Shown here piece after piece: positions 26,006 through 43,290 of a stretch of 64,000 nt of DNA. Source of the DNA: an uncultured virus (IMG/VR IMGVR_UViG_3300007961_000315) (taxonomy: Duplodnaviria > Heunggongvirae > Uroviricota > Caudoviricetes); IMG/VR virus record IMGVR_UViG_3300007961_000315. One strand, given 5' to 3'. The notes under the pieces were generated by a model. The model saw only the letters and a program-made list of their open reading frames with translations, ran no database searches and was not told the origin of the DNA. Positions within the stretch are counted from its first letter, which is position 1. Every line of letters starts with the position of its first letter. Both the position numbers and the translations under genes were made by a program.

Positions 26006-26309
26006 AGAAGGAGAATTTTGATGGTATAAAGGAATTAACCTATATTTTGTATAGCGATGCCATGAATGCAAACGAAGTCCGAAAAGTCTTGTTCTACAAG
26101 GCTTTCCGGGCTTCAAATCAAATGCTGAAAAATGTTGCCTGTCTTTTGTTCAGCTGCGTCATTTACTGCTTTTAACATTACCATAATTTCGATTGTGCTA
26201 TTGTAATGTTCATTTCAAAATACCGCATATGGTGTAACTTTGTTGTCAAGATGTGTGCAGGCAGTTCCTAAAAGTGTTGAAAAAATGCTGTCCGCCATAT
26301 GCGGAGCGA

Positions 26310-26406
26310 TTGACAATAAAATTGGTAAGTGATAAAATATTTACGCAATAAAATCGTGTGAAAACAGGAACTGGGGGCTTGACAAATGGGCTCATCTGTG
26401 CATAAT
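26310..26406 (+). promoter_or_regulatory. Tandem promoters upstream of surface protein 1
   Basis: P1 TTGACA(26310)-17-TAAAAT; P2 TTGACA(26379)-16-CATAAT; same layout at 44326-44422. Confidence 0.65.
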
Positions 26407-26514
26407 TTTACTGGGCACTGGGCACTGGGCACTGGGCACTGGGCACTGGGCACTGGGCACTGGGCACTGGGCACTGGGCACTGGGCACTGGGCACTGGGC
26501 ACTGGGCAGGTTAA
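26386..26514 (+). CDS. Putative leader peptide MGSSVHNF(TGHWALG)4TGHWAG
   Basis: ATG 8 nt after GGGGG, reads through the repeat, TAA in the terminator loop; equivalent uORF at 44402. Confidence 0.5.
   Translation: MGSSVHNFTGHWALGTGHWALGTGHWALGTGHWALGTGHWAG
26411..26508 (+). repeat. Heptamer SSR (CTGGGCA)14
   Basis: 98 bp perfect tandem repeat. Confidence 0.97.
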
Positions 26515-26535
26515 GTCTGCCCTTTTTTGTTTTTT
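26504..26535 (+). terminator. Leader hairpin 1; 5' stem supplied by the last repeat unit
   Basis: GGGCAG-GTTAAGT-CTGCCC-TTTTTTGTTTTTT. Confidence 0.7.
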
Positions 26536-26556
26536 CTCACAGTTTACATGGTCTTA

Positions 26557-26615
26557 AAGGCGTGTTCCGTCCGCGGGAGGTTTACCGCGGGCGGGACGCG
26601 CCTTTTCGCGTTTTT
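26557..26615 (+). terminator. Leader hairpin 2 (long GC stem)
   Basis: AAGGCGTGTTCCGTCCGCGG..CCGCGGGCGGGACGCGCCTT then TTCGCGTTTTT; homologue at 44533-44592. Confidence 0.6.
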
Positions 26616-26661
26616 CTCCAAACAGCAGCGTAAATCCAGAAACAAAAAGGAGTGGCCAAAA

Positions 26662-29454
26662 GTGAAACAAAGCAGATTGAAAGTGTTGTCGCTGGTGATG
26701 GCAGCGGCGCTATGCATGACCCTGCTGCCGGTGACAGCGCTGGCGGCAGATGGCGACGCCATGACGCTGGGAGCCAGCAGCATCCCGAAAGGGAATTTCA
26801 TCTATTATGGCAATTATGGCGGCGAGAATATCAAGTGGAAGGTGCTCTCTGATGAAGGAAACGGAGGCACCTATCAGGACAGCGGTGCTGCAATGTTCCT
26901 GCTGTCGGAATACATTCTGGATAATAACAATGTCCAGTTTGAGGCTGTATGGGACAGTGATGATGGCGACGGACAGGGAACCCAGTATAACATGTGGCAG
27001 CACAGCGACGGACAGGTGTGGTGCAGTACTTTTACGAATTCAGCTTTCGATAAAAAGGAAGCCGCTGCCATTCATAAGACCAGCAAGACTGACAACAAGA
27101 CTGACAGTGCGACGGGTCCATACAATGTAAGCTGGGGAGCAAGCAGTTTGAATGAAGAACAGGTATTTTTCATTTCGGCGGACGAAGCGGCGGCCTATAT
27201 CGGGCCGAATGATGGAGCTGCAGGTCTTGCGGCGACAACCAGCGCCGGAGGCGCCGGGGCGTGGTGGCTGCGCTCCCCTTACCGGTACAATGCTTACAAC
27301 GCGGGGGCCGTCATCGATAATGGTTTTGTGCGCGATCGCAGCGTAGACATTACCTACGGTGCTCGGCCCGCTTTTAATTTAAATCTGGACTCTGTTCTCT
27401 TCGCATCTGCCGCCGCAGGCGGCAAATCTTCCGGCGCCGCAGGCGCCGGCGCTCTCCAGAAAATTACCGGCCCTGCGCCGACCGAGTGGAAGCTGACGCT
27501 GAGGGACAGCTCCCGCAGCGGATTTGATGTGAGCGGCGAAACAATTTCCGGCAGTACCGTTTCCTTTTCCTACTCCGGCGCAAAGACCGGCACCAATGAA
27601 TATCTCTCGGCAATAATCGAGCAGGGCGGAAGCATCACCCATTACGGGCGGATTAAGCTACTGGATGAAACAACAGAATCTTCCGGTACTGCGTCCATCA
27701 CCCTGCCTGCCAATGTGAAACTGGGCGGGAATGTCAGCCTGTATGTGTTCAACGAGCAGTACAATGGCGATAAAAAGACCGACTATGCCAGTGAGTTGAA
27801 GTCTCTTAACCCTCCCCCGGCAGAGGGAAACAAACTGTTGAGCATTACGCAGCCCGTCCCTGTCATTGGCTTGAGCAATGGAACGGCAAAGACTGCGGAG
27901 GCTATGGGCCTGCCCAAAACGGTGGATATCACCACCTCTACCGGCACCCCCACCGAAGCAGAGGTAGCATGGAAAGTAGACGAGTGCGGCTATGACCAAA
28001 CAAAAGACGAGGCGCAGACCTTTGATGTTTCCGGTACGGTAACCCTGCCGGACGGCGTCACCAACCCGGACAATGTTTCTCTTAATGTGACCATCAGCGT
28101 CACCGTTTCCGCAAAAGCTGATCCGAATATCAACAGCATATCCATCAAAACCAAACCAGATAAAACCCGTTATACCGAGGGCGATACGCTGGATTTGAAC
28201 GGGCTTGAAATCACCATTGGTTACAGCGGCGGCGATCCGAAGGATGTTCCGTTCAGCGATTTTGCGGACAGCGGCGTGAGCACCAGCCCGGCGAACGGCG
28301 CCCCTTTGACAACGGCAAATACCACCGTTACCGTCAGCGTGGGAGCGTACAGCGACAGTTTCAATATCACCGTGGCAGAGGGAAACAAACTGTTGAGCAT
28401 TACGCAGCCCGTCCCTGTCATTGGCTTGAGCAATGGAACGGAAAAGACCGCGGAGGCTATGGGCCTGCCCGAAACGGTTGGCATCACAACCAGCAGCGGT
28501 TCGCCAACCTCCGCCAGCGTCACATGGGATGTGGATGGATGCAGCTATAACCCTGCAAGTGGATCGGCGCAGACCTTTGATGTTTCCGGTACGGTGACCC
28601 TGCCAGACGGCGTTACCAATCCGGACAATGTTTCTCTTAATGTGACCATCAGCGTCACCGTTTCCGCAAAGGTTGATTCGACTGTTGCCAGTGTGGAAAT
28701 CAAGACGTCCCCAACGAAAACCAGCTATACCGAGGGCGACACGCTGGATTTGACCGGGCTTGCGATTACCATTGTTTACAGTGATGACGCATCTTCTTCC
28801 AGTTCCTCCTCCGCTTCGGATTCCTCTGGTTCCTCTGTGGATATTGAGTTCAGTGACTTTGCGGACTACGGCGTGGGCACTACCCCTGCACATGGAGCCA
28901 AGCTGACAACGGCAAATACCACCGTTACCGTCAGCGTGGGAGAACATAGCGACAGCTTCAATATCACCGTTACGGAGGCGGGGAACCCCGACCCCGGCCC
29001 TGATGATGACGATGATGACGACCGGCCCAGCAGACCCAGCGGTGGTGGTGGCGACTCCGACAGCCACCCGGATGATGACAACTATGAGTTCTGGGACAAA
29101 GTCAAGCAGAAGGTGCAGGATGCCGAGCCGGGAGAAACCATCAAGGTAAATGCCCGGAGCTATGACAAGTTCCCGTATGACCTGATGAAAGCCCTGTATG
29201 ACCGCGGGGACGTGAGCCTTGAAATCCGCTGGGACGACGGCGATACCTTTACCATCCCGGCAGGGCAGGCCCTGAAACCGGCGAAAAACCGGATTTTCTA
29301 CCGCCTCGAGTACCTTGCAGAGCAGTTTAAGGATGCACCGGCGGCAGCTCCGGTTCAGGAGGAAGACCCCGCCAAGCTCAATCCCAGCACCGGCGCGGGC
29401 AGCTTCTGGGACTATCTGATGTTTTTACTTTGTTCTATCTTTGACGCAGCCTAA
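26662..29454 (+). CDS. Surface protein 1: signal peptide, DUF6273/CLec-like domain, tandem Ig-like domains, NPSTG near C-terminus
   Basis: GTG after AAGGAG; YYGNY..IKWKVL..LLSEYIL..WWLRSP..GARPAFNLNL; KTRYTEGDTLDL Ig-like repeats. Confidence 0.8.
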   Translation: MKQSRLKVLSLVMAAALCMTLLPVTALAADGDAMTLGASSIPKGNFIYYGNYGGENIKWKVLSDEGNGGTYQDSGAAMFLLSEYILDNNNVQFEAVWDSDDGDGQGTQYNMWQHSDGQVWCSTFTNSAFDKKEAAAIHKTSKTDNKTDSATGPYNVSWGASSLNEEQVFFISADEAAAYIGPNDGAAGLAATTSAGGAGAWWLRSPYRYNAYNAGAVIDNGFVRDRSVDITYGARPAFNLNLDSVLFASAAAGGKSSGAAGAGALQKITGPAPTEWKLTLRDSSRSGFDVSGETISGSTVSFSYSGAKTGTNEYLSAIIEQGGSITHYGRIKLLDETTESSGTASITLPANVKLGGNVSLYVFNEQYNGDKKTDYASELKSLNPPPAEGNKLLSITQPVPVIGLSNGTAKTAEAMGLPKTVDITTSTGTPTEAEVAWKVDECGYDQTKDEAQTFDVSGTVTLPDGVTNPDNVSLNVTISVTVSAKADPNINSISIKTKPDKTRYTEGDTLDLNGLEITIGYSGGDPKDVPFSDFADSGVSTSPANGAPLTTANTTVTVSVGAYSDSFNITVAEGNKLLSITQPVPVIGLSNGTEKTAEAMGLPETVGITTSSGSPTSASVTWDVDGCSYNPASGSAQTFDVSGTVTLPDGVTNPDNVSLNVTISVTVSAKVDSTVASVEIKTSPTKTSYTEGDTLDLTGLAITIVYSDDASSSSSSSASDSSGSSVDIEFSDFADYGVGTTPAHGAKLTTANTTVTVSVGEHSDSFNITVTEAGNPDPGPDDDDDDDRPSRPSGGGGDSDSHPDDDNYEFWDKVKQKVQDAEPGETIKVNARSYDKFPYDLMKALYDRGDVSLEIRWDDGDTFTIPAGQALKPAKNRIFYRLEYLAEQFKDAPAAAPVQEEDPAKLNPSTGAGSFWDYLMFLLCSIFDAA
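27262..27449 (+). other. Candidate DGR variable region plus downstream GCA-triloop hairpins
   Basis: WWLRSP...GARPA with 21/26 intervening codons ending in C/T; TGCCGCC-GCA-GGCGGCA (27408) and CCGGCGCC-GCA-GGCGCCGG (27431). Confidence 0.6.
27820..28971 (+). repeat. Intragenic duplication of a ~555-bp two-Ig-domain unit
   Basis: GCAGAGGGAAACAAACTGTTGAGCATTACGCAGCCC at 27820 and 28375; second copy has a Ser-rich insertion. Confidence 0.9.
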
Positions 29455-29466
29455 AACTTCATAACA

Positions 29467-29540
29467 AAAGCAAAGGAACCCCGTCAATGGCGGCATAGCC
29501 GTTCATCTCGACCATTGAGGGGGTTCCTGCTTTTGTTTTT
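29467..29540 (+). terminator. Long hairpin terminator after surface protein 1
   Basis: AAAGCAAAGGAACCCC..CAATGG..CCATTG..GGGGTTCCTGCTTTTGTTTTT. Confidence 0.6.
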
Positions 29541-29678
29541 ATTCTTATACGGATAATAGCGCAAATGAATTCGAAATATGTTGAAAGATTAGGCCGACTG
29601 CGCTATAATAAACAGTCTGGGTAAGTTCAGACTAAGCAAAGAGCGGTCGACTGAAAACCGACCGCTCATAAAGTTTAA

Positions 29679-30575
29679 TCATTTATCTCGCAGCATGGAC
29701 AGGTACATGTCCAGCCGCTCGTTGATATATCCGGCGAACAGTTTTTCCATGGCCGACAGGTCGTGCTTCAAATAGTAGGCGTCGAAAGCATTGTAATAGG
29801 CGAGCCGGTCTGTGAACTTGATATCGATAGGCGGAAACCCTGCCTTCATCAGTTCCAGATTGACCAGCAGACGCCCAGTACGCCCATTGCCGTCGATGAA
29901 GGGGTGGATACCCTCAAACTCGATGTGGAACCAGGCCAACTTGGTAACGATGTGTTCGGTGCTCTCTGCGAAGCTCGCCATAAGCTGTTCCATGCGAGGC
30001 TGGATCAGATAGGGCTGCACCGGCTCATGCTGCGCGCCCATGATACGCACGGGCACCCGACGATACATACCCCGGTCATCCTTCTTATCCGCCAGCACTA
30101 GGAAGTGGATCTGCTGAATGATGCGCTCAGACATGGGGGCCTGCTCCTGCACCAGTTCCCGAACATAGTCAAAGGCCTCCTTGTGGCCCACGGCTTCCAT
30201 GTGATCCTTCAGGGGCTTCCGGTCAATGGTCAGTCCCCGCAGGACCATATCAGTCTCCCGGAGAGTCAGGGTGTTGCCCTCAATGGCGTTGGAGTTGTAA
30301 GTGTACTCTACGGTGAACTCCTCTGTCAGCCGTGCCACCTCGCCCTCGGTCAGCGGACGGCGGGTATTCAGCTCGGCTTTCTTCCGGTCGATCATATCGA
30401 GCAGACTTTCGGTGGACTTGAACCGTCCGTCGGCGGGCTTCACGGCATCCGCGGGGATCTTCCACCCGCGCCCCTCCTGAAACGCACCGGGGATCTTCCC
30501 CTCGGCGCAGAGAATGCGGACGCGCCGGTCAGACAGACCCCATTTCTCCGCGGCCTGCTTTGCAGTCATAAACAT
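29679..30575 (-). CDS. HTH-Fic protein (class II Fic)
   Basis: N-terminal HTH (TAKQAAEKWGLSDRRVR), inhibitory SNAIEG motif, catalytic HPFIDGNGRTGR; RBS GGAGG. Confidence 0.9.
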   Translation of the reverse strand: MFMTAKQAAEKWGLSDRRVRILCAEGKIPGAFQEGRGWKIPADAVKPADGRFKSTESLLDMIDRKKAELNTRRPLTEGEVARLTEEFTVEYTYNSNAIEGNTLTLRETDMVLRGLTIDRKPLKDHMEAVGHKEAFDYVRELVQEQAPMSERIIQQIHFLVLADKKDDRGMYRRVPVRIMGAQHEPVQPYLIQPRMEQLMASFAESTEHIVTKLAWFHIEFEGIHPFIDGNGRTGRLLVNLELMKAGFPPIDIKFTDRLAYYNAFDAYYLKHDLSAMEKLFAGYINERLDMYLSMLRDK

Positions 30576-30613
30576 GAGCAACCCTCCAATCCACAGAAAG
30601 TATACCACAACAG

Positions 30614-30667
30614 CGGAATAATATCAATTGCATCGGAATAATATTTTTTGAATTATCGGAATAATAT
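30614..30667. repeat. CGGAATAATAT x3, probable operator of the HTH-Fic gene
   Basis: Copies at 30614, 30634 and 30657, directly upstream of the Fic start. Confidence 0.6.
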
Positions 30668-30844
30668 GTTTTCCGCCACAGGTGACCGTCCTGACCAACG
30701 CACAGTCAGAATGGTTGTCTTTTTGTTTGCTCAACAGGTGCACCGCGATAAACAAGGAAATGAGAAAAACTTTTTCGTGCTATTTCTAATTGCCTTTAAT
30801 CGTTTTCTCTCGATTTTATTTCCTTTCAAAGCATCTTTAACACT

Positions 30845-31574
30845 GTCAGCGGTGGTGGAGGTGCTGCGGGAGTATAAGAAAACCGTGGACTCCCGGTGGA
30901 TGTTCCCCTCCCCGGTGAAGGAGGACTGCCCCCTTACTCCTGGCGTGGTGCGGCGCAGGCTGCAGCTCATTCTGGAACACGCCGGGTGCAAGCATGTGAG
31001 GTTTCATGATCTGCGCCATACCTTTGCAACGCTGGCGCTGGAGAACGGCATGGACGTGAAGACCCTCTCCGCCATGCTGGGCCATGTGTCGGTGGCCACC
31101 ACGCTGGATATCTACACCCACATCACCGACGATATGCAGCGCATGGCCGCCGCCAATATCGACCGGGGTATCGGCAAGGCAGCACCGCAGGAGGCCGCTT
31201 CGGCACCGGGGCAGGAATCTGCCCCGGCCACGGAAGAAAAGCCGAGGATGACCGATTTCAAGCCCTACGTGGGCCGCAAACGCAAGCCCGGCACCGGCTG
31301 CATCACCGAGATCAACGACCACCTGTTCGAGGGCCGCTACTCGCCCAAGTGGCCCGATGGTAAAAAGCACTCCCGAAATGTCTACGCCCACACTCGTGAA
31401 GAGTGTGAAGAGAAGCTGAAGGTGCTAATCGTGGAAATGAAGGCTGAGATTGCAGAAGCACAACGGCTGAAGGATCTGGGAGAAGGGGATGGCAGTCCGC
31501 TGAACCCACCGAAGAAACTAAAAAAGGCAAAGAAAACGAAGAAGAAAAGCAAGAGCGCAAAGAAGCGGAAGTGA
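30845..31574 (+). pseudogene. 5'-truncated tyrosine integrase
   Basis: RFHDLRHTFAT, MLGH and DIYTH catalytic C-half; upstream sequence is AT-rich and non-homologous, no RBS. Confidence 0.8.
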
Positions 31575-31716
31575 AATAAGCGCCGCCCTGAGGACCGAAT
31601 GTTCGGCACCCGGGGCGGCATTCTTTTTGAAAAATAATTCATTATTCACTTGCGACTATAACAAGACAAGTGACATATTATTTGCCTCCGTATATTGTGG
31701 TTGTTCGGGATCAGCA

Positions 31717-31896
31717 TTACCGATAACCTTTGTGAGTTTTTTTGAATTCGCCGTACTCATCATCTGTGAGTTCAAGTATGGTACCGACATCGTCGCACAC
31801 GATGTGGACGGTTTCCATATCGTCATCGTGACAATACGGGCATCTGGAGTATTCGGACTCGTCGTAAACTTTGTCGCAGAATGGGCACATTTGCAT
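31717..31896 (-). CDS. Small zinc-ribbon protein
   Basis: CPFC..CPYC; RBS GGAGG. Confidence 0.6.
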   Translation of the reverse strand: MQMCPFCDKVYDESEYSRCPYCHDDDMETVHIVCDDVGTILELTDDEYGEFKKTHKGYR

Positions 31897-31931
31897 AATA
31901 AGTACCTCCCTGTTAATTGCTGGTTTTGTGT

Positions 31932-32141
31932 TTACAGGTCGTTTTCGGTTACTTTGAAACCACAGCTGGTGCATCCCCAATAGCCTTCACCGAAGGCGAA
32001 ATCACCGGTATCGTCGTGTCCGTGGAAATCCATCGTACTGCCGCAATGGGGGCAGTTGGGGTGATCGGAGTTGATGTCACTTTCCCAAGGATAATCAACT
32101 GCGTTTTTAAGAGCCTTCTTCCAGCCTCTCAAGTTTGCCAT
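31932..32141 (-). CDS. Small zinc-ribbon protein
   Basis: CPHC..CTSC; RBS AGGGG. Confidence 0.6.
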   Translation of the reverse strand: MANLRGWKKALKNAVDYPWESDINSDHPNCPHCGSTMDFHGHDDTGDFAFGEGYWGCTSCGFKVTENDL

Positions 32142-32155
32142 AATGTTTTCCCCCT

Positions 32156-32335
32156 TTAATCTCTGTTGATTACTTTCCCGATGATATCGAAAAATGTCCC
32201 TACTGAAGCTTTGCGATCCGCAAGTGCTTCTTCCAGCGTGGAATCACCGTATACGTCCTCAACCTGTTCGGGTGTCCATTTATCGCCGATTTCTTCCATT
32301 TCTTCGATGAATGTGTTGATGTCTTTCGTTTTCAT
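32156..32335 (-). CDS. Small acidic hypothetical protein
   Basis: RBS GGAGG; packed operon. Confidence 0.6.
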   Translation of the reverse strand: MKTKDINTFIEEMEEIGDKWTPEQVEDVYGDSTLEEALADRKASVGTFFDIIGKVINRD

Positions 32336-32353
32336 GATAATATCCTCCAAACT

Positions 32354-32563
32354 TTACTTTCTAAATGGTCTCGAAAAAACTTTTCCGCCCTCCTGAACAA
32401 GCTCTTCGGTGTGTTCAGAAATATATTCTGCAACTGGATACCACGCCTTCTTAAATACAAAACACAGTTGACCATCGATTTCTTTGGTAGGACAAGTGTA
32501 TCTTCTTCCGCCACTGGTGATTTGACACCATTTAAGAATTTTGTTTACTCCAAGCACTAACAT
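32354..32563 (-). CDS. Small hypothetical protein
   Basis: RBS AAGGAGG. Confidence 0.6.
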   Translation of the reverse strand: MLVLGVNKILKWCQITSGGRRYTCPTKEIDGQLCFVFKKAWYPVAEYISEHTEELVQEGGKVFSRPFRK

Positions 32564-32574
32564 GCCGCGCCTCC

Positions 32575-32796
32575 TTAACTAATGTGTTGTTTTAGCCAAT
32601 CAGGCATATCGTGGGCATCGAGGGCCCACGATTCAACAGCTTCCTCGTCTTCGTACCATTCGTTTTCGTGTCCATCGAATATTTTCTGACGGTGGCATCT
32701 GTATTTGACTACCTCTCCGCCTTCAATCCGGTACTCGTTCCAGTAGTAGTTTTGTTTGCCGTAACCTTTCCATTCCTGAGTGGTGTAAACTGTCAT
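32575..32796 (-). CDS. Small hypothetical protein
   Basis: RBS GGGAGG. Confidence 0.6.
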
Positions 32797-32810
32797 TTTG
32801 CTTTCCTCCC

Positions 32811-33014
32811 TTAAACAAACAGTGAGTGGACTTTTACGCCGAGGCAGTCAGACAGTACCGAAGCGCGGCGGGTAAGCATCTTGCGAAGCTTCCTGTGCTG
32901 ACGACTTGACATTTTCTTCGGGTGCTTCTTACAGAAGCGGTCGATAGAGGTCGATACACGGGACAGTCGTTTGAGTGATTTCTTGCTGGCCTTGCCAAGA
33001 TCTAAAAACTCCAT
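32811..33014 (-). CDS. Small basic hypothetical protein
   Basis: RBS AAAGGAAG; K/R-rich. Confidence 0.55.
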
Positions 33015-33090
33015 AATTTACTTCCTTTCTTATTTCGTTATTTGTGTTTCCCTTGTTTATGGCTTAATTATAAGCCGTGAGTTCTTATGG

Positions 33091-33131
33091 AAAAATGACT
33101 ATAGGGGCAAAATAGAGTGGCTATTTTGCCC
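33091..33131 (-). promoter_or_regulatory. Operator-like inverted repeat GCAAAATAG..CTATTTTGC, copy 1
   Basis: AAAAATGACTATAGGGGCAAAATAGAGTGGCTATTTTGCCC; homologue at 34469-34510; TATAAT on minus strand downstream. Confidence 0.65.
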
Positions 33132-33138
33132 TTTTACG

Positions 33139-34212
33139 TTATGCGCGGCGGGTGGCAAGGCTCAACATTGCAGCTGCGCCGGAAACAAGTACACCGGCAA
33201 AGACGCTGGCAATCGCATATCGCGCGGTACGATCCTGCTTTTTCTGCTCCTGCGCAATTCGAGCGGTCTTGAGTTCGATGACCTTTGCTGCACGAGAACT
33301 GTTTTCATCGGTGGCTGCGGGAGCTTCCTCCGGCACATCCTGCAGTACAGACAGTGCTTCTGCAAGACTGCGGCGCACCTCATCGTAATTGAGTTCGGTC
33401 TTAAAGCGCTTTACATTGGACGCCATCTCGGAAAAAATCTCACCAAGCTGTGCCAGCTGATCTTCTTTGTAATAAGCACAGCCGAGGTAGTTCTCAATCT
33501 TTTTGTTGAGGCCGGTCCGGAAGCAATGCTTTTCGCGGCGGTATCTGTCGTCGATGCGAATGAACTGTCCCTTCGGGGCAGAGAATACGATGAAGCTGTC
33601 CACGAACACAGGGATATCCAAGCCCTTGTCTGCCAGTGCCTTTTTCAAGCACTTCTTCAGCAGTCTGCGTTTCAGCGCCATCTTGTCTGCCAGAGGCACC
33701 TTGTCATAGCACTCATCGCCAGCGAATACCATTCTTCCGTCTTCTGTGAGGGTGAGATCGGATTTAACCTTCTTTACCTCCAAGATGATAACACCGTTGT
33801 CCGTCAGCACGATGCCGTCAAGCTCGGTTTCTTCCATGCCGTCAGTAATATACACATTGTGGAACACCTGAGTATTGGGCCTATCCAAAAACTCGAGTGT
33901 TCTGGAAACGAGGCTTTCGCCTTTAGCGCCGGACATGGTAATGGCCATTTCCTTTGCAAGCTTCTTCATGGTAAGAACACCATTATGAACGGCAGGGTGG
34001 CTGCGGAGTTCCTTCTTTCTTGCGGTGGATTCCATAATGTACAGGGCTTCGTCGACACGCATTTTTTTGTGGTAGGCATCACCGGCGATCATTTTGCAAA
34101 TCATGCTCTGGAACTGCACGATTTCGGAAACGTATTCCTTGAACGTACACTCGCAGGTCATCAAGATGTTGCTGCTCTCCATTTCATGAATAAAATCTTC
34201 AGCTGTTTTCAT
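33139..34212 (-). CDS. NERD-domain (nuclease-related) protein with C-terminal hydrophobic segment
   Basis: GAKGE..FHNVYI..ELDGIVL..GVIILEVK. Confidence 0.75.
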   Translation of the reverse strand: MKTAEDFIHEMESSNILMTCECTFKEYVSEIVQFQSMICKMIAGDAYHKKMRVDEALYIMESTARKKELRSHPAVHNGVLTMKKLAKEMAITMSGAKGESLVSRTLEFLDRPNTQVFHNVYITDGMEETELDGIVLTDNGVIILEVKKVKSDLTLTEDGRMVFAGDECYDKVPLADKMALKRRLLKKCLKKALADKGLDIPVFVDSFIVFSAPKGQFIRIDDRYRREKHCFRTGLNKKIENYLGCAYYKEDQLAQLGEIFSEMASNVKRFKTELNYDEVRRSLAEALSVLQDVPEEAPAATDENSSRAAKVIELKTARIAQEQKKQDRTARYAIASVFAGVLVSGAAAMLSLATRRA

Positions 34213-34230
34213 AATAAAATCCCCTTTTTA

Positions 34231-34392
34231 TCAGTCGTTCTTCTCTATGGTTGTTGCCTGTGTTTTCGGCTTTTCTTTACTTTCGTTGGTGGCTACAAGC
34301 GAATAGCTGAGGCCAATTTGATTTGCGTAGCTTGCCTGGTTATCAATTTTCTGGATTAGGCGACTGGCGATAATGCGTTCTCTAACAGTCAT
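34231..34392 (-). CDS. 53-aa hypothetical protein (MTVRERIIASRL...)
   Basis: RBS AAAGGGGG; translated by hand, below the ORF-track cutoff. Confidence 0.5.
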   Translation of the reverse strand: MTVRERIIASRLIQKIDNQASYANQIGLSYSLVATNESKEKPKTQATTIEKND

Positions 34393-34468
34393 TTATGTCC
34401 CCCCTTTCTTCCTTGAAAAATGCTTGTTCCTTGTTTGTGCCTTAATAATACCTGAGGGGTCGCTAAGT

Positions 34469-34510
34469 AAAAATGACTGTAGGAGCAAAATAGAGAAGGC
34501 TATTTTTGCC
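34469..34510 (-). promoter_or_regulatory. Operator-like inverted repeat, copy 2
   Basis: AAAAATGACTGTAGGAGCAAAATAGAGAAGGCTATTTTTGCC. Confidence 0.6.
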
Positions 34511-34563
34511 GTCAGAGCATGAAAAAACACCCCAGCATTTCTGCTGAGGTGTCTGCGTCCCAA

Positions 34564-35085
34564 TTACTTATTATTGTGTTTCGTTCTAAACTTGTTATAT
34601 ACGTCGATATCAATTACACCGGTTGCAAGCATGCGTTCCGACCACAGTTGTAGCGTTTCTACGGTAATAGATATTTTCTCCAGTTCTTCTTGGATATGAA
34701 CGAAATCGGCGATTTCATCTTCCGTGATTTCTCCATCTGCCGTGATCTCAATCAAGCGATCCTGCGTTTTCCGCATTGCGTTGAGAGATGCCAGCATTTC
34801 AAGGACGATTTGAGAAAGGTCTTTTACCTTAACTTCCGGCACATATTCCTGCCCGATGGGGCACAGATTTGCACAGTAATGATTGCAGAGCCTCGGTACC
34901 TTGTACACGTCGGACATTGCCAAAACCTCATCCGGATGCGGAAGGGATTTCTCGTTCTCAATCTTCTCGATGCGTTCAGGTGAAATCCAGCCAAGCAGCT
35001 CGCTGGCCTTTTCTCTGGACAAGCCCATTTCTTCACGGCTTATCTGAAAATGTGTTTTATTCTCCTTTGTTGATACGCGCCCCAC
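34564..35085 (-). CDS. XRE-family HTH regulator
   Basis: REEMGLSREKASELL..ERIEKIENEKSLP; GTG start after AGGGGG. Confidence 0.8.
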   Translation of the reverse strand: MGRVSTKENKTHFQISREEMGLSREKASELLGWISPERIEKIENEKSLPHPDEVLAMSDVYKVPRLCNHYCANLCPIGQEYVPEVKVKDLSQIVLEMLASLNAMRKTQDRLIEITADGEITEDEIADFVHIQEELEKISITVETLQLWSERMLATGVIDIDVYNKFRTKHNNK

Positions 35086-35643
35086 AAATTTATCCCCCTG
35101 TACCAGTATACCGACGAAGAAAACCCGTCCTGCGACCTATTTTATCACAATTCGAGGTTTTTTCAATACGCGCCTCAACCGTTGTGTTTAGATTCCTTCG
35201 TTTCAAACTCTGCGCCGCAATAAACAAGGAATAAGAAAAAGCCTCTGAAATCACCGATTTCAGAGGCTTTTTGTCGTTGGCGGTTAAAATGGATATTTCC
35301 ATAAAGCGTTGCAGCGGAAAGCTTTTAAGGACGTTGAACTGCTGGAGACCGCAGAAAATTCTGTGTAATCGACAACCGTCGACAGTATGAAAATCATCGG
35401 CACAGTCAAGAATGGAACTAACATTCAAGACGAAGGAGTCGAAGATTATGAAGTCGGTACCACAGGATTTACTGAAGGAATATACACGACGAAGCTCTTC
35501 TTTTTCCTGCGAAATCTCAATTACATATTTGGACATAGTAAAACCTCCATACTACTGCTAAAAGCAGTTTAACATGGAGGTTTCAAAAAGAAAAAAGCCA
35601 CATCTCAGCCTTGGATCACAAGACTAAAATGTAGCTTTTAACA

Positions 35644-35718
35644 TGGTCAGAGTAGAGCGATTCGAACGCTCGGCCTCTTGAACCCGAAGCAGGCGCGCTA
35701 CCAACCGCGCTGCTCCCG
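35644..35718 (-). pseudogene. Chimeric/degenerate tRNA-Pro-like sequence (probable att remnant)
   Basis: GGTAG D-loop, CGG at anticodon position, intact T-arm GAGCG-TTCGAAT-CGCTC and CCA end; acceptor and anticodon stems do not pair. Confidence 0.6.
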
Positions 35719-35928
35719 GTTATTTAGTTGTTTCATCCGGCTGGTCGTATTCACCCAATACGTGTCTGAATCTTCAGTAGGCACTCTTTCGCCTTTTAGG
35801 ATTCAAATAAGATTGAATTCTGTATATTAAAAGAAACTACATCAGGATTCGCTCTAGAAGACCGATAGCTCTGCCGTAGAACAAAACGCGGGAATTGCGT
35901 TGCATAAACAAGGAATAAGCAGATTAAA

Positions 35929-36684
35929 TTATATGCACTCAATATGATGGTGCGCCATTATCAGCTCATCAGAAATGATTTGATATGCTCTTGCACTGTC
36001 CACATAAGACCAGGGAGAGCCAGAGCGATGCGTGAAATCAACAAGTGTGCCAGCAGTATACTTTCCATACTTCTGAATTGTCTGATCAATCGAGCGGAGC
36101 TTTTCAGCACCATCTTTTGCAAACAGAATACGGCTTCTTGCCGGTAATTCCTTTACGCCAGTTCGAACGTTGCTGTCATCGCCAAACTCTAATGGCTTAA
36201 CATATTGAGAACCACTTCGCTTGTAGGTTTCATAAACGCTATCAACAACAGGTCCATGTGTAAATGCATAGATTTGATCTTCAAATAAGCGTTCGGAGTG
36301 CTCACACAAATAATCAGCATATGCAAAATAGACGAGTTTTTCCAAAGACAGATGTGTGCATTTAATTTTAGAAAGAATATAGGTAGCCACATCCAAACCG
36401 ATCAAGACTCGGTCCTTTTTGATTATCTTTGTAAAGTCCGATACCGACTTGGTACACTCAACACTCTCGAAGAAAGGATCATACTCTGCGACAGAGTCCC
36501 AAGAGTCAGAGGGGATCTCAATGAGATGTGTTGACAGAGGAACATCCTTGCCGCAGATCTGCTTAATATCCTTGATGATATCTGCAATTGCTTCTCTGTT
36601 GAGCAAACCTTCCTCCGTGATATCCAGTGCGACACGAGTGCCGTCGGTGTATGAACTGCTCATAATAATATAGTGCTTAGCCAT
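35929..36684 (-). CDS. Panacea (SocA/DUF4065) antitoxin with N-terminal extension
   Basis: THLSLEKLVYFAY, IYAFTHGPVV, LVDFTH..SPW; start overlaps upstream gene end, RBS AAGGAGG. Confidence 0.8.
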   Translation of the reverse strand: MAKHYIIMSSSYTDGTRVALDITEEGLLNREAIADIIKDIKQICGKDVPLSTHLIEIPSDSWDSVAEYDPFFESVECTKSVSDFTKIIKKDRVLIGLDVATYILSKIKCTHLSLEKLVYFAYADYLCEHSERLFEDQIYAFTHGPVVDSVYETYKRSGSQYVKPLEFGDDSNVRTGVKELPARSRILFAKDGAEKLRSIDQTIQKYGKYTAGTLVDFTHRSGSPWSYVDSARAYQIISDELIMAHHHIECI

Positions 36685-37306
36685 CGATGATTCCTCCTTC
36701 CTTACTTTCTTTTTCCCATGTAGTATATTCTTGCTTATGTTTCTTATGAGACGCAAAATTACTGTCGGCATCACATTGGTTCCAAATTTGCAGTTCCCAT
36801 GGGAAGGACTGATTGTTTTTTCTGAAATAGATATGAACGGCCTTGTAGTCGAACTTAGATGAGTCGATACATCTATACTTACCTTGGTAAGTCTTCTCAA
36901 GAAAAGCATGAATTTCGTCAAAGGTCAACGGAGTTTCCAAAAAGATTCTAACGCCAAACAGCTCATTGACACACTTATTGATGGGGATCTTACCGAATTC
37001 ATGCCGTGAAGTCTTATAGTTTTGAATTTTGCACTCAATGGAGTTCTGCGCTTTTACTCGAGCCGTAACCTGACAAGCGCATACGAAAGAAAGCTGCAAG
37101 GTAATGCCCGCACTTCTTTCGTTCAAGAGTTGGACATATTCCATAATGCTCTTGTGTATACTTCCATCAACATCAATGTCTGCAATCTGAGATTTTTTCA
37201 GATTTATTTTTGCATTTGCACCGTGCATCCATTCATCTGTAACCTCGGTATATACTGACTGAATATAATCAATCAAGTCTTTAAGTTCATCAAAAACACT
37301 TCTCAT
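36677..37306 (-). CDS. Small alarmone synthetase (RelA/SpoT SYNTH), toxSAS-like
   Basis: RVKAQNSIECK, NELFGVRI, YKAVHIYF, PWELQIW. Confidence 0.75.
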   Translation of the reverse strand: MRSVFDELKDLIDYIQSVYTEVTDEWMHGANAKINLKKSQIADIDVDGSIHKSIMEYVQLLNERSAGITLQLSFVCACQVTARVKAQNSIECKIQNYKTSRHEFGKIPINKCVNELFGVRIFLETPLTFDEIHAFLEKTYQGKYRCIDSSKFDYKAVHIYFRKNNQSFPWELQIWNQCDADSNFASHKKHKQEYTTWEKESKEGGIIDG

Positions 37307-37667
37307 AGTATACTACCTCAATGATATTATATCTCCACTGTGCAAATTAGTCAATCAAGTAAGCGGAGGAGGCGAGCGATGTATGAATAACAATGACGAT
37401 ATACATCTCCGAAAGGATTTCTGATTTTTAGGTAGAGCGGAGTGCCTTAAAATGTAGGACAAACCTACGTACAGCTATTTGATAAGGAAAAACAAATCTT
37501 ATCAATATTTATTCACAAGTGTTAATAGAAATGGACTTGCCCTTTAATAGGAACATAATGTATAATAAATATATTGTGTGTCGAATACCGACGAAACACA
37601 ATAATATTATTAACATAGAAAATGACAGACGACTTTTCCCGATCAAGCGATACTCTGGGCCAATAAC

Positions 37668-37710
37668 TTGACACTCCCCACAGATAAAGCGAGGGGCTTT
37701 ACGGTGCTTT
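37668..37710. mobile_element. Orphan IS200/IS605 end hairpin (collapsed scar)
   Basis: TTGACACTCCCCAC matches the IS right end (59109); TAAAGCGAGGGGCTTTACG resembles the left end (60837). Confidence 0.6.
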
Positions 37711-37744
37711 TGGTAAAATGATTGAAACGAGGGAGCGAGGGCTG

Positions 37745-38286
37745 ATGAATATGTCCATATTGAATATTCAGCAAATTGAAGATTATAGAGATCATTTTCT
37801 GGAAGAAGAACACAGCATGTAAACCTTGAAAGGTATGTCCGGAATATTGGATTTTTTCAAATTTCTACTGGCAGATAAGACAATCAGTAGGGAAGCGGCT
37901 CCGGCCTATAAGCAGACGTCAAGGGAACGATACCGAGTGTCCAAGCGCCAACAGTATGTTACGGCGCTGAGTAGTTTTTTGAAATTCATCGGTCTGGGCG
38001 AATATCGGGTCAAACTGTTTTGAATGCAGCAAAAAACCTGTATGCCCAGTTGGTAAAAACCGCGCAGTCACAATATGACAAACGCCTCACCCTGTTCATT
38101 AAGGCAATCTGTGGCGTTGACAATCGGATGATTGAGCGTCGCTTCATCACACCAGAAGTTTTGTGGAAAGGGTACGCTCAGATCGCCAGTAAGGGTAAAA
38201 ATCATACGCTTATTTTGAAGAAAGAGCTCTGCCGTCTGTTTTGGCAGCGTTGCAGACGTAAAGGAATTTCCGTAGGCTGGTCTTAA
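37745..38286 (+). pseudogene. Fragmented tyrosine recombinase
   Basis: IEDYRDHFLEEEHS*, LSSFLKFIG, LFIKAICG..FITPE..KGKNH spread over frames with stops. Confidence 0.55.
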
Positions 38287-38413
38287 TCCATTGTAATGGA
38301 CACATGCTGAACAGGTCCAACATCTGGGCGCAGATAAAGCAACTGCGTGAGTCGGTCCAGATTGACTCATCAACAAGAAATTATTATTAAGCGAGGATCG
38401 GTAGGGAAGTATC

Positions 38414-41400
38414 ATGCAATCCAGTATGAACACAGCTCCTTTGGACGAATTGCAGAATCAGGCAGGCAGCAATATGGAAGCGTCTGCCGCTCAAATCAAA
38501 GAGTGGAAAGAGCTGCAAACAATTGTTGAAAGCAGTTCTTGCGGTGTATATAAGGCTGCTCTGCTGGAAGGCGTCCCTATCCTCTACGCAAACGATGGGT
38601 ACTATGCAATCCACGACTATACCAGGCAGCAGTTTGAAGAGGAGCTTGGAAACCGGGGGGCTTCTCTGATTCTGCCGCAGGATATCCAGCGGATTGCCCA
38701 AGCGATTGAAAACAGCCTCAAATGCAGAGATTCCAAATTGGTTCTGGAATATCGAATTCGTCGGAGGGACGGCGCCGTTGCATGGGTGCACAGCGAGATC
38801 AACTTTTTTAGCGGCACGGACGGTGAACAGCAGATCGCGGGACTGGTTTTTGATATCACCGAGCGGAAAGAGCTGGAACTGCGCCTCCGGCGTACCTCCA
38901 CGCTCTACCATATAGCGCAGAAGCATAGCCGGCTCAACATGTGGGAGCTGGATATTAAGAACCGGCGTATCATCCAGACAGAGGGATCAAAAGCTCTTCA
39001 CGGGTATGGAGATGTAGTGGAAAATGTGCCGGATTCACTGCTCGCATCCGGCTATTTTCACCCGGATACAGTTGCTGAGGTTCAGGGACTGTTCGACCGA
39101 ATCTACAGCGGCAGGAAACAGTCGTCCGCCACCTACAAAGTGAAGAAAAAGGATTCTGACACCGAATACTGGTGGGAAAAGGTCACCTATGAGCTGGTGC
39201 CGGACGAAGACGGAAATGCCGCTTATGCCATCGGTGTTTCGGAGGATGTAACTGAACAGAAGGAAACGGAGCTTCAGAGGAGCAGGGATGTGCTTCTGAA
39301 CCAGATGGTGTATGAAGATGTGCTTTTCTCTATACAGGCAGATCTGACAGAGGATACTGTACTGAGCAGCTGGTTTTCTGAACGGGCCTTGGGTTTTGAA
39401 AAAGCGGAGAACTTCAGCGCCAATGATCTTTTTCAATATATTTTGACCGCAATGGCCAATCCGGATGACGCCAAGCGGTTCAAGGAGCAGTTTTCTGAAA
39501 AGCCGCTCCAAACATACATACAAAACGATTTGGATATCCCTTCGTTTGAGTGCCGTCAGCAGACGGCGGATGGGCACATTGTTTGGGTGCGGCTCATTTC
39601 GAGAATTAACACCTCGGCGGAGAACGGCCATCGGATACTCACCCTGTATGCCCGGGATATTTCAAAGCAAATTCAGGGGGAACAGCGACTGCAGCAAAAG
39701 GCGGAACGGGATGAGGAATCCGGCCTGTATAATTTCCCCACCGGCAGACTGCTCATTCAAAATATCCTGAGAAGCAGGGCGGTCAGCAACCAAAACAGTA
39801 CCTTGGCGCTGATGAAGCTTGACGGACTTTCTTCAGTGCAGGGACAAACCGCGAAAAAAGAGCTGATGCTCAGCATCACTGCACAGGTTAGGGCATGGCT
39901 TCCTTCCTCCTGTATCATTGCCAGAGATAGCGAGGATACATTTCTTTTGTTCTGCTACGGTATGCGGTCTACGGCAGAACGCATCGCTGTTGTGGAACGG
40001 ATCATCAAGGAGGCCACGCATCCAGAACACCATCTTCCGGATGGCGTCACGCTGCAGACGTTTGCCGGCATAATCAACCAAATCGAAGCGGAGGCGGAAT
40101 TCGATCAGATTTATCATGCCGCTTTCAATTTGTTGATGCAGGCTTGGAAAAACGGCGAGCCCTGCGTGGTGTCGGATGAAGAGAACGTTTCTGAGACGTC
40201 TGCGGAGCAGCAAGGCTGGAGTATTGAAAAATTTGTTGAGCAGAGCTGGAAAGATTTTGAGCGTGGAACGTCCCCGGATGAAATTGCACGGATTGCATTC
40301 GGATATCTTGGGACAGAAAGCCATGCCCGTCGGATCACTTCGTTTCTCCGTCTGCCGGGCAGCCGGCAGCTGCAAAAGCAGTTGGAATGGCGCTCCCATA
40401 AAAACGGCGGCTCCCTGCCGGATTTGGATTCTGCAAAAATGGGCGAGCTGTTTCTATCCATTCCGGAATCTAAAAATGTTGTTACCATCAGGCCTGATTC
40501 CGGGCGACTTTATGATTGCTTCAGTAAATGCTGCCAGACAGCGCCGGTTTGTCCTGCGATAGTCTGCAGCAGCAGGGCAAATGGCATTCTCACCTTTTGT
40601 ATCCTGATGGAAGGCACCAATCAAACGCCGCCGGTTCAGGAGATGGAGTCTATTGTTTCCTTCCTGCGTCGGATTTACTTTGTCAATGAGCTGCATATCC
40701 ATTACAAATATGCAGCGCTGCGTGACCCTGTTACCTCGCTGTTTAACTTTGAGGGGTATCTGAAACGCCTGCAGGATTTGCAGGAGGATACCCTTTCCAG
40801 TCTGGGAATGGTATCGGTATATATCCTTAATTTCAAGGAGTACAACCGGCAGTACAGCAGCCGTCAGGGAGATGCCATGCTCCAGAGCGTTGCTCAAATT
40901 ATGGAGGATATATTTGGCGCCAATGCCTGTTACAGGATCAGCGGTGCAACTTTCCTTGCCATCTGCCCTGATGTTACATATGAAACGTTCATGGGACTTT
41001 ACCACAAGCTGGAAAGCAGGATGGAACTGGCGCATCGCAGTCGTATCGCCTGCGCCAGTGTGTGGGAGCAAAACGCCATCTCCCTTGACGTTATGAAAGA
41101 GCAGCTGGACGAGCGGATCCAGGTTGCGGCCAACCGGCTGCGTTTGGAAAATAAGACTGCGGCGGAGCGCTTTGCCCACATTGCATATGAACAGGTCAAA
41201 GAAAAAATAGGGAAAGGAAACTTTGTTGCCTTTTTACAGCCAAAGGCGTCTGCCTCTACAGGGAAGGTCTGCGGTGCGGAAGCACTCATCCGCTATCAGG
41301 ATGAGGAGAGGGGCATCCTGCCGCCGGGAGAATTTCTGAAGGCAATAGAAGCTGCCGGTGCGATCCGGGAAATCGATCTGTTTATGCTGGAGAGTGTGTG

Positions 41401-41992: not shown

Positions 41993-42012
41993 CCGAAGAG
42001 AGGATTGAGTTT

Positions 42013-43290
42013 ATGTTTGGTCATCAGTTGTTTATGAAGGAAGCAGGGAAGATTGCCGCCAGATATGCCGGAGAACACAGAGTATTTCTCTTCTATGCGG
42101 ATATTGCTGAGTTCCGACTCATTAACTACTTTTATGGCACGAAACAGGGAGATGAGTTGCTTCTTGCAGTGGAAGGATATCTAAGTCAAATCCCGCAAGT
42201 TCAGCTATATGAAAGGATATTTTCTGACTATTTCGCGTTTGTAGTTGTTACCGATGCGCCACGGTCGGACGACGCGCTGATTGAAACGTATCAGCGCTAT
42301 GCCGATACGTTTATCGCTGCTCAAAAGGAGAAGTATCCAGCCGGCAATCTGAAGATTTACTGCGGTATCTGCCCACTGGGAGAGAACAATCTTTCGGAAA
42401 CATTAGACCACGCCAACATTGCTCGCAAACAAGCACGAGAAAGTGTTGTGCGTACCGTTGTTGTTTTTAACCGCCAGATGCAGAAGAATCTTCAAACAAA
42501 TATTGAACTGGAAAAGGAAGTGAACACCTGTCTTTGGGAGAAACGGTTCACCTTTGTTTTACAGCCGAAGGTCAATATGCTCACCGGTGAGATCGTCGGC
42601 GCTGAAGCGCTAGCCCGCCGGGTTACGCCAGAAGGTGAAATCATTTATCCCGATTTTTTTCTGTCAATCATGGAACGTAACGGTTCCATTGTGGATATGG
42701 ACTATCTGATTTTGGAGCATGTCTGTGTCCACATGGCGGAGCGGTTGCGCAGAGGGTTGCCGGTGGTTCCCACATCGGTGAATCTTTCCCTACTGCATGT
42801 CTTAGATGAGTCCACCGCCTTTCGTATCCATGAGATTGTGCAACAATATAAGGTGCCGGCCAGGCTATTAGAGTTCGAACTTACCGAGACTATTTTCACC
42901 GAAGAATTGGCAGGAGCTAAGCGGTTAGTGGAGCGTCTGCGAAATTTGCATTACTCTGTGGCTATTGACGATTTTGGTTCGGGCTATGCAGGCATTACCC
43001 TTTGGCAGGAACTGGACTTTAACGTCCTCAAGTTGGACAGGCGATTTCTATCGGAGGAGGAACCTCTGTGTACCCGAAATCAAGCCATTGTTCCAAATAT
43101 TGTGAACATCGCCTGGAAGTTGGACAACACCGTTATCTGTGAAGGCATCGAAACCTATGAGCAGTGCCAGTATATGCTGAATATGGGGTGTACGATTGCG
43201 CAGGGCTTTTATTTTTCGCGAGCAGTGCCTGCGGAAGAATTTTATCAGAAATACCAAGAAGTGTCTGGGTATTTCCCCATTTTTCGTTAG
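42013..43290 (+). CDS. Degenerate GGDEF + EAL phosphodiesterase
   Basis: IFSDYF site; LQPK, EALAR, DDFGSGY, CEGIET, QGFY. Confidence 0.85.
   Translation: MFGHQLFMKEAGKIAARYAGEHRVFLFYADIAEFRLINYFYGTKQGDELLLAVEGYLSQIPQVQLYERIFSDYFAFVVVTDAPRSDDALIETYQRYADTFIAAQKEKYPAGNLKIYCGICPLGENNLSETLDHANIARKQARESVVRTVVVFNRQMQKNLQTNIELEKEVNTCLWEKRFTFVLQPKVNMLTGEIVGAEALARRVTPEGEIIYPDFFLSIMERNGSIVDMDYLILEHVCVHMAERLRRGLPVVPTSVNLSLLHVLDESTAFRIHEIVQQYKVPARLLEFELTETIFTEELAGAKRLVERLRNLHYSVAIDDFGSGYAGITLWQELDFNVLKLDRRFLSEEEPLCTRNQAIVPNIVNIAWKLDNTVICEGIETYEQCQYMLNMGCTIAQGFYFSRAVPAEEFYQKYQEVSGYFPIFR

Follow-up and report, generated by a model that had tools for sequence, protein, structure and literature searches.

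Candidate phase-variable transcription attenuators in the heptamer-repeat leaders of two surface-protein genes from a pig-gut Anaerotruncus

The IMG/VR record IMGVR_UViG_3300007961_000315, a DNA of 64,000 nucleotides (the window), contains two copies of a leader module of ~350 nt, each of which begins with a promoter-like site and ends at the codons for the signal peptide of a large secreted protein. Each copy comprises two promoter-like sites (P1 and P2), a short leader open reading frame (ORF) that includes a perfect array of the heptamer CTGGGCA, and two terminator-like hairpins (T1 and HP2), all on the plus strand. We tentatively propose that each locus is a slippage-driven, and hence phase-variable, transcription attenuator that depends on the leader ORF and belongs to the type described for the pil1 and pil3 loci of Streptococcus gallolyticus. 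The proposal, which is based on two paralogous copies, would add to that type a first terminator built from the repeat and a very strong second hairpin.

In the pil1 locus, 22 GCAGA repeats are located inside a leader ORF of 38 codons with a stem-loop terminator downstream (Danne et al. 2014, PMC3894217). As described there, when repeats are gained or lost out of frame, the leader stop codon is shifted into or beyond the terminator, which raises pil1 transcription, and the mechanism was confirmed with three mutants, in which the ATG and ribosome site were destroyed, stop codons were present in all three frames, or the terminator was deleted. The leader stop codon is located at least 28 nt before the terminator in low-expression isolates and immediately upstream of the terminator or beyond it in high-expression isolates, and pil3 has the same layout with 13 repeats (PMC3894217). 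The initial annotation of the window named no system combining a simple sequence repeat with leader-peptide attenuation; pil1 and pil3 are a published precedent for it, and the idea of a repeat-in-leader attenuator is plausible but is not a new principle. No further experimental system emerged from a search of the full-text literature for repeat tracts in leader peptides combined with a terminator, and the literature on Anaerotruncus and phase variation held nothing relevant.

According to the proposed mechanism, transcription would start at P1, and a ribosome would load at the GGGGG-N8-ATG motif and translate the leader ORF across the whole heptamer array. Since 7 is not divisible by 3, a replication slippage event that adds or removes one repeat would shift the leader stop codon between three fixed positions. 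Whichever frame is used, the ribosome would cover the 5′ arm of T1, formed by the last repeat, so that T1 would stop only those transcripts that are untranslated or uncoupled from translation. The frame would be decisive at HP2. If the number of repeats (n) satisfies n mod 3 = 2, the ribosome would leave at the TAA codon in the T1 loop, 41 to 44 nt before HP2, allowing HP2 to fold and transcription to end (low or OFF state). With either of the remaining frames, the ribosome would halt at the foot of HP2 or translate through it to a stop codon ~31 nt before the start of the gene. Provided that ribosome and RNA polymerase remain coupled, a ribosome at or within HP2 would prevent its folding, and the surface-protein gene would be transcribed (ON state). 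A long, pure, non-triplet tract in an ORF endowed with a ribosome site upstream of surface-protein genes is the classic setting of a contingency locus, and large secreted surface proteins with Ig-like domains are the usual cargo of such loci, which we count in favor of this proposal.

Repeat arrays and leader reading frames

The array is (CTGGGCA)14 at locus 1 (positions 26411 to 26508) and (CTGGGCA)8 at locus 2 (44427 to 44482). Both are perfect simple sequence repeats, reported by Tandem Repeats Finder as perfect 7-nt arrays of 14.1 copies (26410 to 26508) and 8.3 copies (44425 to 44482). The purity of the arrays is 100% (98/98 nt and 56/56 nt, respectively), versus 76.7% identity (174/227 columns) for the aligned leader flanks. 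Pure arrays, diverged flanks, and unequal copy numbers at paralogous loci (n = 14 versus n = 8) together form a signature of ongoing slippage, which probably operates in vivo. Contigs of four public sequencing runs (X1, X2, X4, and X6) were compared to positions 26495 to 44440 of the window. Among the matches listed, the parts of the leaders that were covered showed no difference, and the arrays were unspanned; the public runs consist of contigs assembled at k = 31, which cannot span either array.

In the present frame, the leader ORF of locus 1 extends from 26386 to 26514 (42 codons plus TAA) and that of locus 2 extends from 44402 to 44488 (28 codons plus TAA). Each contains the whole array and stops in the T1 loop. 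The ATG codon at position 26386, which is the only start codon leading into the array of locus 1, is preceded at a distance of 8 nt by a GGGGG run (26373 to 26377), and both elements are identical at locus 2. Pairing of the ribosome site of this ATG with a generic anti-Shine-Dalgarno probe gave an energy of −8.4 kcal/mol, a value reached or exceeded in strength by 5.6% of the 2,207 ATG codons of the window; the same probe gave −9.6 kcal/mol for both structural genes. The leader ATG may be used for initiation. Thus, as in pil1 and pil3, a non-triplet repeat is wholly included in a short ORF having a ribosome site and a start codon at both loci.

The reading frames of the two leaders end at three landmarks, namely, the T1 loop, the foot of HP2, and the interval between HP2 and the ribosome site of the structural gene, and this arrangement holds at both loci despite indels. 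The present state is n mod 3 = 2 at both loci, with a stop codon in the T1 loop (TAA 26512 at locus 1 and TAA 44486 at locus 2). At locus 1, n mod 3 = 1 leads to TAA 26555 to 26557, located 1 nt before the GC stem of HP2, and n mod 3 = 0 leads through HP2 to TAA 26631 to 26633, located 31 nt before the start codon and 16 nt before the GGAG sequence of the gene. At locus 2, n mod 3 = 0 leads to TAA 44527, located 5 nt before the GC stem of HP2, and n mod 3 = 1 leads through HP2 to TAG 44604, located 32 nt before the start codon. The early-stop frame at the foot of HP2 abuts or overlaps the A:U base pairs of that hairpin. A 2-nt indel in the T1-HP2 spacer, which has diverged between the loci, makes the read-through class differ (mod 0 at locus 1 versus mod 1 at locus 2); the frame used across HP2 is homologous at both loci. 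The frame arithmetic confirmed, for both loci, the two early-stop frames and the single read-through frame of the initial annotation, which had also correctly located the array, promoters, GGGGG run, ATG, and both hairpins of locus 1; all of these features are present at both loci.

The spacing of the stop codons relative to HP2 is that of the pil1 and pil3 type, since the present frame ends 41 to 44 nt upstream of HP2, a second frame ends 1 to 5 nt before its GC stem, and the third ends beyond it. Application of the spacing rule of PMC3894217 to the present frame predicts that both loci are currently in the low or OFF state, as the initial annotation had guessed. The same rule predicts a high or ON state for two of the three frames at each locus, so that the read-through frame singled out by that annotation is there but would not be the sole ON frame. 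The spacing does not apply to T1, since the 5′ arm of this hairpin is inside the leader ORF in all three frames. Thus, T1 would separate translated from untranslated transcripts rather than one frame from another, and the suggestion that the frame acts across two hairpins could apply to HP2, around which the stop codons differ, but not to T1.

The 153-nt leader segment between the end of the array and the start codon contains three stop codons at locus 1 and four at locus 2, versus 6.2 to 8.0 in shuffled sequences (P = 0.03 to 0.07). The three-landmark pattern was obtained in 11% (locus 1) and 8% (locus 2) of the shuffles that kept both hairpins. These stop codon statistics are suggestive, not strong.

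The position of the arrays does not correspond to that of other repeat-based switches. The −10 hexamers of P2 and P1 precede the array by 4 and 72 nt, respectively, so that the array is outside both promoter spacers. It is also outside the coding sequence, since 153 nt separate its end from the start codon of the structural gene, which has its own AAAGGAG sequence and is followed at once by the signal-peptide codons. The path in phase between the leader ORF and the structural gene is interrupted by TAA 26512 at locus 1 and by TAA 44486 at locus 2. An invertible switch was considered and rejected, as there are no flanking inverted repeats beyond the hairpins themselves. Two features of this segment were observed in addition. 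At both loci, exactly 153 nt separate the array end from the start codon (26509 to 26661 and 44483 to 44635) despite four indels between the loci. Moreover, the leader ORF in its present frame shares the phase of the structural gene, and at locus 1 only the single TAA in the T1 loop separates them.

Terminator-like hairpins and promoter-like sites

T1 of locus 1 (26504 to 26535) consists of a hairpin (26504 to 26522) of 7 bp with a 5-nt loop containing TAA 26512, followed by a U-tract (26523 to 26535). T1 of locus 2 (44478 to 44502) consists of the hairpin 44478 to 44496 followed by U6. In both cases, the hairpin is formed by the last repeat plus GG, with a folding energy of −11.3 kcal/mol, and the tail is U6GU6 at locus 1 and U6 at locus 2. 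T1 is, by sequence, a canonical intrinsic terminator, and it is predicted to act as one.

HP2 is a much longer structure. At locus 1 (26556 to 26605), it comprises 21 bp, including four G-U pairs, with a folding energy of −43.4 kcal/mol (z = −6.9) and the tail UUUUCGCGUUUUU. At locus 2 (44533 to 44580), it comprises 22 bp, with a folding energy of −38.3 kcal/mol (z = −7.1) and the tail UUCCUGCGUUUUU. Complementarity between the arms at the DNA level is only 86% and 77%, four of the pairs being G-U; this requirement for G-U pairs indicates that the structure belongs to the sense-strand RNA. Pairing has been kept between the loci through one compensatory change and two one-sided changes. Thus, as in pil1 and pil3, the leader ORF is separated from the gene by a stem-loop with a U-run that is predicted to terminate transcription. 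Terminator-like hairpins with stems of 17 to 20 pairs and a T-run are also present elsewhere in the window. Two further candidate structures were discarded. A small alternative terminator made from the 3′ arm of HP2 (26591 to 26609) consumed the U-run in its own stem when refolded without the lower 5′ arm, and a pairing of the gene start with positions 26544 to 26554, seen in the fold of locus 1, was absent from the fold of locus 2.

The two promoter-like sites proposed by the initial annotation were found at locus 1, each with 11/12 matches to the consensus, and both recur at locus 2. P1 of locus 1 (26310 to 26338) has the structure TTGACA-17-TGaTAAAAT, including a TG extension, and its predicted start is near 26345. 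P2 of locus 1 (26379 to 26406; TTGACA-16-CATAAT) has a predicted start near 26413, within the first repeat. The corresponding sites of locus 2 are P1 at 44326 to 44355 (TTGACA-18-TGgTAAAAT) and P2, the same site as in locus 1, at 44395 to 44422, with a predicted start at about 44429. Both strands of 40 kb contained only seven sites with 11/12 matches, and P1 and P2 of the two loci account for four of these. Both hexamers of P1 are kept at locus 2 despite a spacer that differs in sequence and length. P1, predicted from the consensus alone, would provide the transcript that carries the leader ORF.

Similarity between the two loci starts at P1, upstream of which identity is 36%. The segment from the −10 hexamer of P1 to the array is 85% identical, and the 21 nt following the array (T1 plus U6G) are 100% identical. 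Identity drops to 25% in the spacer between T1 and HP2 and amounts to 84% in HP2, 77% between HP2 and the start codon, and 86% in the signal-peptide codons. The 18-mer GGGGGCTTGACAAATGGG occurs twice in the window, and two matches were found in none of 100 shuffles.

Alternative explanations for the leader modules

Folding of the P1 transcript up to the end of the U-tract revealed a predicted long-range helix as the minimum-free-energy structure at both loci. At locus 1, its 5′ strand (26360 to 26383) contains the GGGGG run and the −35 hexamer of P2, and its 3′ strand (26510 to 26534) overlaps the T1 loop, 3′ arm, and U-tract. The duplex energies, −23.6 and −26.6 kcal/mol, compare with −13.4 to −14.7 kcal/mol in shuffled sequences (P = 0.0015 to 0.007) and were equalled in only 0.06% of 1,729 other segments. 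In addition, the pair A26364-U26530 is replaced by G-C at locus 2, a compensatory change within an otherwise diverged region. On the basis of these folds, the helix would let P1 transcripts bypass T1 without a ribosome.

The helix is central to an alternative that we consider doubtful, in which expression would be set by the length of the array or by RNA structure and not by the reading frame. The array would then be an insert between the antiterminator strands 26360 to 26383 and 26510 to 26534, and its length and self-folding would set the frequency at which the helix forms before T1. A double-strand RNase may, in addition, cleave the structured 5′ untranslated region (UTR) or HP2, and expression would be graded with n. 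The duplex energy and the compensatory change of the helix agree with this explanation, as does the self-folding of the array RNA (−38.3 kcal/mol at n = 14). There is also a precedent in the hmw1A and hmw2A genes of Haemophilus influenzae, in which, as described, a transcribed (ATCTTTC)n repeat of the 5′ UTR forms a long hairpin processed by RNase III, with expression declining at higher n (PMC12721329). However, the pair probability of T1 at equilibrium barely depends upon n, with only a slight alternation according to parity (0.32 versus 0.42). There is also no downstream arm complementary to the array, unlike in hmw; the array pairs with itself or stays open, and only its last unit pairs downstream, in T1. 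The covariation control, based on two sequences, was not significant, as 120 of 500 shuffles reached the observed value. Finally, graded control by length leaves the placement of the stop codons and the presence of an ATG with a ribosome site unexplained.

The helix and the two hairpins could also form an attenuator under the control of another signal, a protein or small molecule choosing between helix, T1, and HP2, with the repeat being a tolerated, fast-evolving microsatellite of little or no effect. Competition between the helix and T1, followed by HP2, would provide a complete attenuator devoid of a role for n, which is in keeping with the near insensitivity of equilibrium folding to n, and three GGDEF/EAL signaling genes are located directly upstream of locus 2. 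We regard this explanation as unlikely. Rfam 15 gave no match at the gathering score in the whole window, and the best E value in the leader region (26200 to 26750) was 0.23, every score being far below the threshold. Moreover, the two paralogues have the same perfect array at the same position with different values of n, T1 is built from the last repeat, and the tract has the classic contingency setting described above, all of which weigh against a bystander microsatellite.

P2 offers a further explanation, which appears improbable. P2, the array, and T1 would form a small transcription unit of their own, producing an RNA of ~115 nt (at n = 14) composed almost entirely of CUGGGCA repeats. In a variant of this explanation, transcription over the G-rich non-template strand (G3N4) would act on the DNA by causing repeat instability or interference with P1. 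P2 is conserved and ends 4 nt before the array. A transcript starting in the array is predicted to form T1, which has a strong U-tract, with a probability of 0.94 at every n from 3 to 21, and P2 would thus yield a short repeat RNA ending at T1. The array fits the G3N4 pattern, and the quadruplex option of ViennaRNA preferred a quadruplex for 4 units. In contrast, a hairpin was the minimum-energy fold at 8 and 14 units, and a G-quadruplex was rejected for the full arrays. Conservation of the P2 hexamers could be due to their overlap with the leader ORF and the long-range helix, and no protein or RNA partner is evident.

Several observations weigh against the frame-dependent attenuation that we prefer. 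P2 matches the consensus as well as P1 does, is conserved, and would start transcripts inside the array, i.e., without the leader ATG. The long-range helix reduces the pair probability of T1 to 0.04 to 0.05 at locus 1 and to 0.11 to 0.19 at locus 2 in the absence of any ribosome. P2 and the helix would both offer routes to expression that are independent of the frame. The GGGGG run is shared by the neighborhood of the P2 −35 hexamer and the 5′ strand of the helix. The same dozen bases are thus claimed as ribosome site, promoter hexamer, and antiterminator strand, and their conservation cannot be credited to any one of these roles. At least one frame was open past HP2 in 86% (locus 1) and 62% (locus 2) of the shuffles keeping the hairpins. 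The stop codon statistics reach only P values of about 0.03 to 0.1 per locus, and the loci, being paralogous, do not test the proposal independently. At locus 2, HP2 is followed by UUCCUGCG and then U5, a terminator tail that is weak nearest the stem. Only two copies of the leader are available, and no orthologous leader was found in the collections searched (genomes containing the bare repeat, metagenomes, viral contigs, plasmids, and proteins). Finally, transcription and translation are reported to be uncoupled in Bacillus subtilis.

All of these elements could be combined in a three-layer device, which we consider very improbable when its layers are taken jointly. It would comprise a mini-transcript made from P2, the array, and T1, a long-range antiterminator available only to P1 transcripts, and HP2 gated by the leader frame. 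In the first layer, transcription across the G3N4 non-template tract would drive repeat instability or give a heritable repeat RNA of variable length. In the second layer, only P1 transcripts would bypass T1, the 5′ strand of the helix being located upstream of the P2 start. If such a device exists, promoter choice, RNA structure, and repeat frame would jointly set expression, a form of control that has not been described before.

Known systems, related sequences, and genomic setting

Under frame-dependent attenuation, the two leaders resemble pil1 and pil3, as described, in having a non-triplet repeat wholly contained in a short leader ORF with its own ribosome site and ATG, and a stem-loop terminator between this ORF and a gene for a surface structure. 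The frame set by the repeat would place the leader stop codon far ahead of the terminator, giving low expression, or else at, within, or past it, giving high expression. There are in both cases two paralogous loci per genome with the same repeat and unequal copy numbers (22 and 13 in S. gallolyticus; 14 and 8 in the window). The differences from the published description include a heptamer in place of the GCAGA pentamer and two tandem hairpins in place of one. It is the last repeat that forms the first terminator, whose loop accommodates the stop codon for one of the frames, and the second hairpin is much more stable (−38 to −43 kcal/mol, versus −18.7 and −28.2 kcal/mol for pil1 and pil3). The leader ORF also encloses a second promoter-like site, and T1 would face competition from the predicted long-range helix. 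These leaders belong to a commensal of the Clostridia, and their genes do not encode pili; finally, the present loci are known from sequence, whereas pil1 was characterized by experiment.

If our proposal is correct, the repeat-in-leader design recurs outside the streptococci, with another repeat unit and in an obligately anaerobic gut commensal of another class, upstream of genes for non-pilus surface proteins that are part of, or adjacent to, an integrated mobile element. Surface variation in gut Clostridia would then proceed by slippage as well as by DNA inversion, and a class of switches would escape scans for phase variation that are limited to coding regions or promoter spacers. With its two terminators, the layout predicts a tighter OFF state and, possibly, three levels of expression.

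The leaders share with hmw1A and hmw2A, in the published account, a transcribed heptamer repeat in the 5′ leader, two paralogous loci (adhesin genes in the case of hmw), and two promoter-like elements, and leader RNA structure is central to the hmw effect. They differ from hmw, in which the array pairs with a G-rich partner to form a hairpin and the account has neither a leader ORF nor a terminator. Here, both promoter-like sites are upstream of the array and the terminator-like hairpins are downstream. In cwpV of Clostridioides difficile, a site-specific recombinase inverts a leader segment, thereby deciding whether an intrinsic terminator forms in the 5′ UTR. The present loci would be similar to cwpV in that a heritable change of leader DNA controls a terminator upstream of a surface-protein gene in a species of the Clostridia. 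In contrast to the inversion, the variable element is a simple sequence repeat, and there are no flanking inverted repeats. In attenuation of the Escherichia coli trp type, stalling of the ribosome at particular codons reports the amino acid supply (PMC3894217). As in that mechanism, the position of the ribosome on a leader ORF would decide the folding of a downstream terminator; here, unlike there, this position would be set genetically by the reading frame.

Searches for related leaders were performed in several collections. Scanning a genome collection with (CTGGGCA)3 detected at least 122 stretches, mostly in high-GC lineages (Longimicrobium, Phycisphaerales, Streptomyces, and others). None of the 122 stretches listed had any of five leader flank motifs, the bare repeat being too generic a query to show absence of the leader from genomes. 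A metagenome scan with the 18-mer GGGGGCTTGACAAATGGG returned 13 stretches, all chance matches and none of them related. Scans of viral contigs gave no match to the T1 motif or to a 24-mer and one match to an HP2 arm, in high-GC coding DNA. A blastn search of a plasmid collection gave no match to the leader. The translated read-through frame (26412 to 26630) gave 103 matches in a protein database, all of them unrelated repeat peptides lacking the flank motifs (0/103), one of which has an MGSS start by chance.

These searches also brought up repeats in other genomes. The (CTGGGCA)n arrays occur in at least 122 stretches of unrelated genomes, several of which have many copies. Among the matches listed, one Longimicrobium assembly has seven such loci (L006, L019, L050, L057, L058, L080, and L089), and one Sphaerobacteraceae assembly has five. 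Short predicted proteins made of GHWALGT-like repeats are found in Nostoc and other cyanobacteria (within P0123 to P0225). The (CTGGGCA)n sequence may thus represent a widespread heptamer-repeat family unrelated to the present leader.

Gene 1 (26662 to 29454) encodes a secreted protein of 930 residues with a signal peptide and DUF6273, Big_3, and Big_4 domains; it has a GTG start codon preceded by AAAGGAG. Gene 2 (44636 to 48805) has an ATG start codon and encodes a secreted protein of 1,389 residues with a C-terminal membrane anchor and a signal peptide nearly identical to that of gene 1. The lysyl-tRNA synthetase encoded at positions 4954 to 6474 is 100% identical to the NCBI entry "MULTISPECIES: lysine--tRNA ligase [Anaerotruncus]," and the public runs containing this region are metagenomes of pig gut, stomach, and other animal gut, none of those listed being recorded as RNA. 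We assign the two surface-protein genes to a pig-gut Anaerotruncus, a commensal of the Clostridia.

A search with the N-terminal 60 residues of gene 1, i.e., the signal-peptide region, matched only two proteins. Protein P0226 (1,164 residues) has 98% of these 60 residues in common with gene 1. Two parts of gene 1 (positions 28087 to 29450) match a contig of 1,511 nt in each of the runs X1 and X2, with ~80 to 90% identity and 870 other letters between the parts. On the basis of these contigs and of P0226, a diverged paralogue or allele of the gene 1 surface protein is present in the X1 and X2 communities.

Genes of the mobile-element type surround the surface-protein loci and adjoin lysS (6741 to 37400 and 49460 to 60750). 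They encode an HTH_36 replication-type protein, a RecD2-like helicase, PcfJ-like, DUF4942, and Fic proteins, and an integrase, as well as a SocA/Panacea antitoxin-like protein, an N6 methylase of 1,029 residues, ArdC-like and DUF4313 proteins, and IS605 OrfB/TnpB. From their gene content, these surroundings look like an integrated mobile element, and an integrative element may carry the putatively switchable adhesins as cargo. In a near-identical strain from the independent pig-gut run X2, two segments of the window are deleted, 34788 to 35481 (694 nt) and 36234 to 37391 (1,158 nt). The 1,158-nt deletion was also found in one X4 contig, and both deletions are within the region of the HTH and SocA/Panacea genes.

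Three consecutive cyclic di-GMP (c-di-GMP) signaling genes (38414 to 44192) encode PAS-GGDEF-EAL, GGDEF-EAL, and PAS-GGDEF proteins. The last of them ends 134 nt upstream of P1 of locus 2, and these genes may provide a second, signal-dependent layer of control over the gene 2 surface protein. Near the end of the window, an AT-rich tandem repeat of 11 nt is present in ~4 copies in an intergenic region (61273 to 61321).

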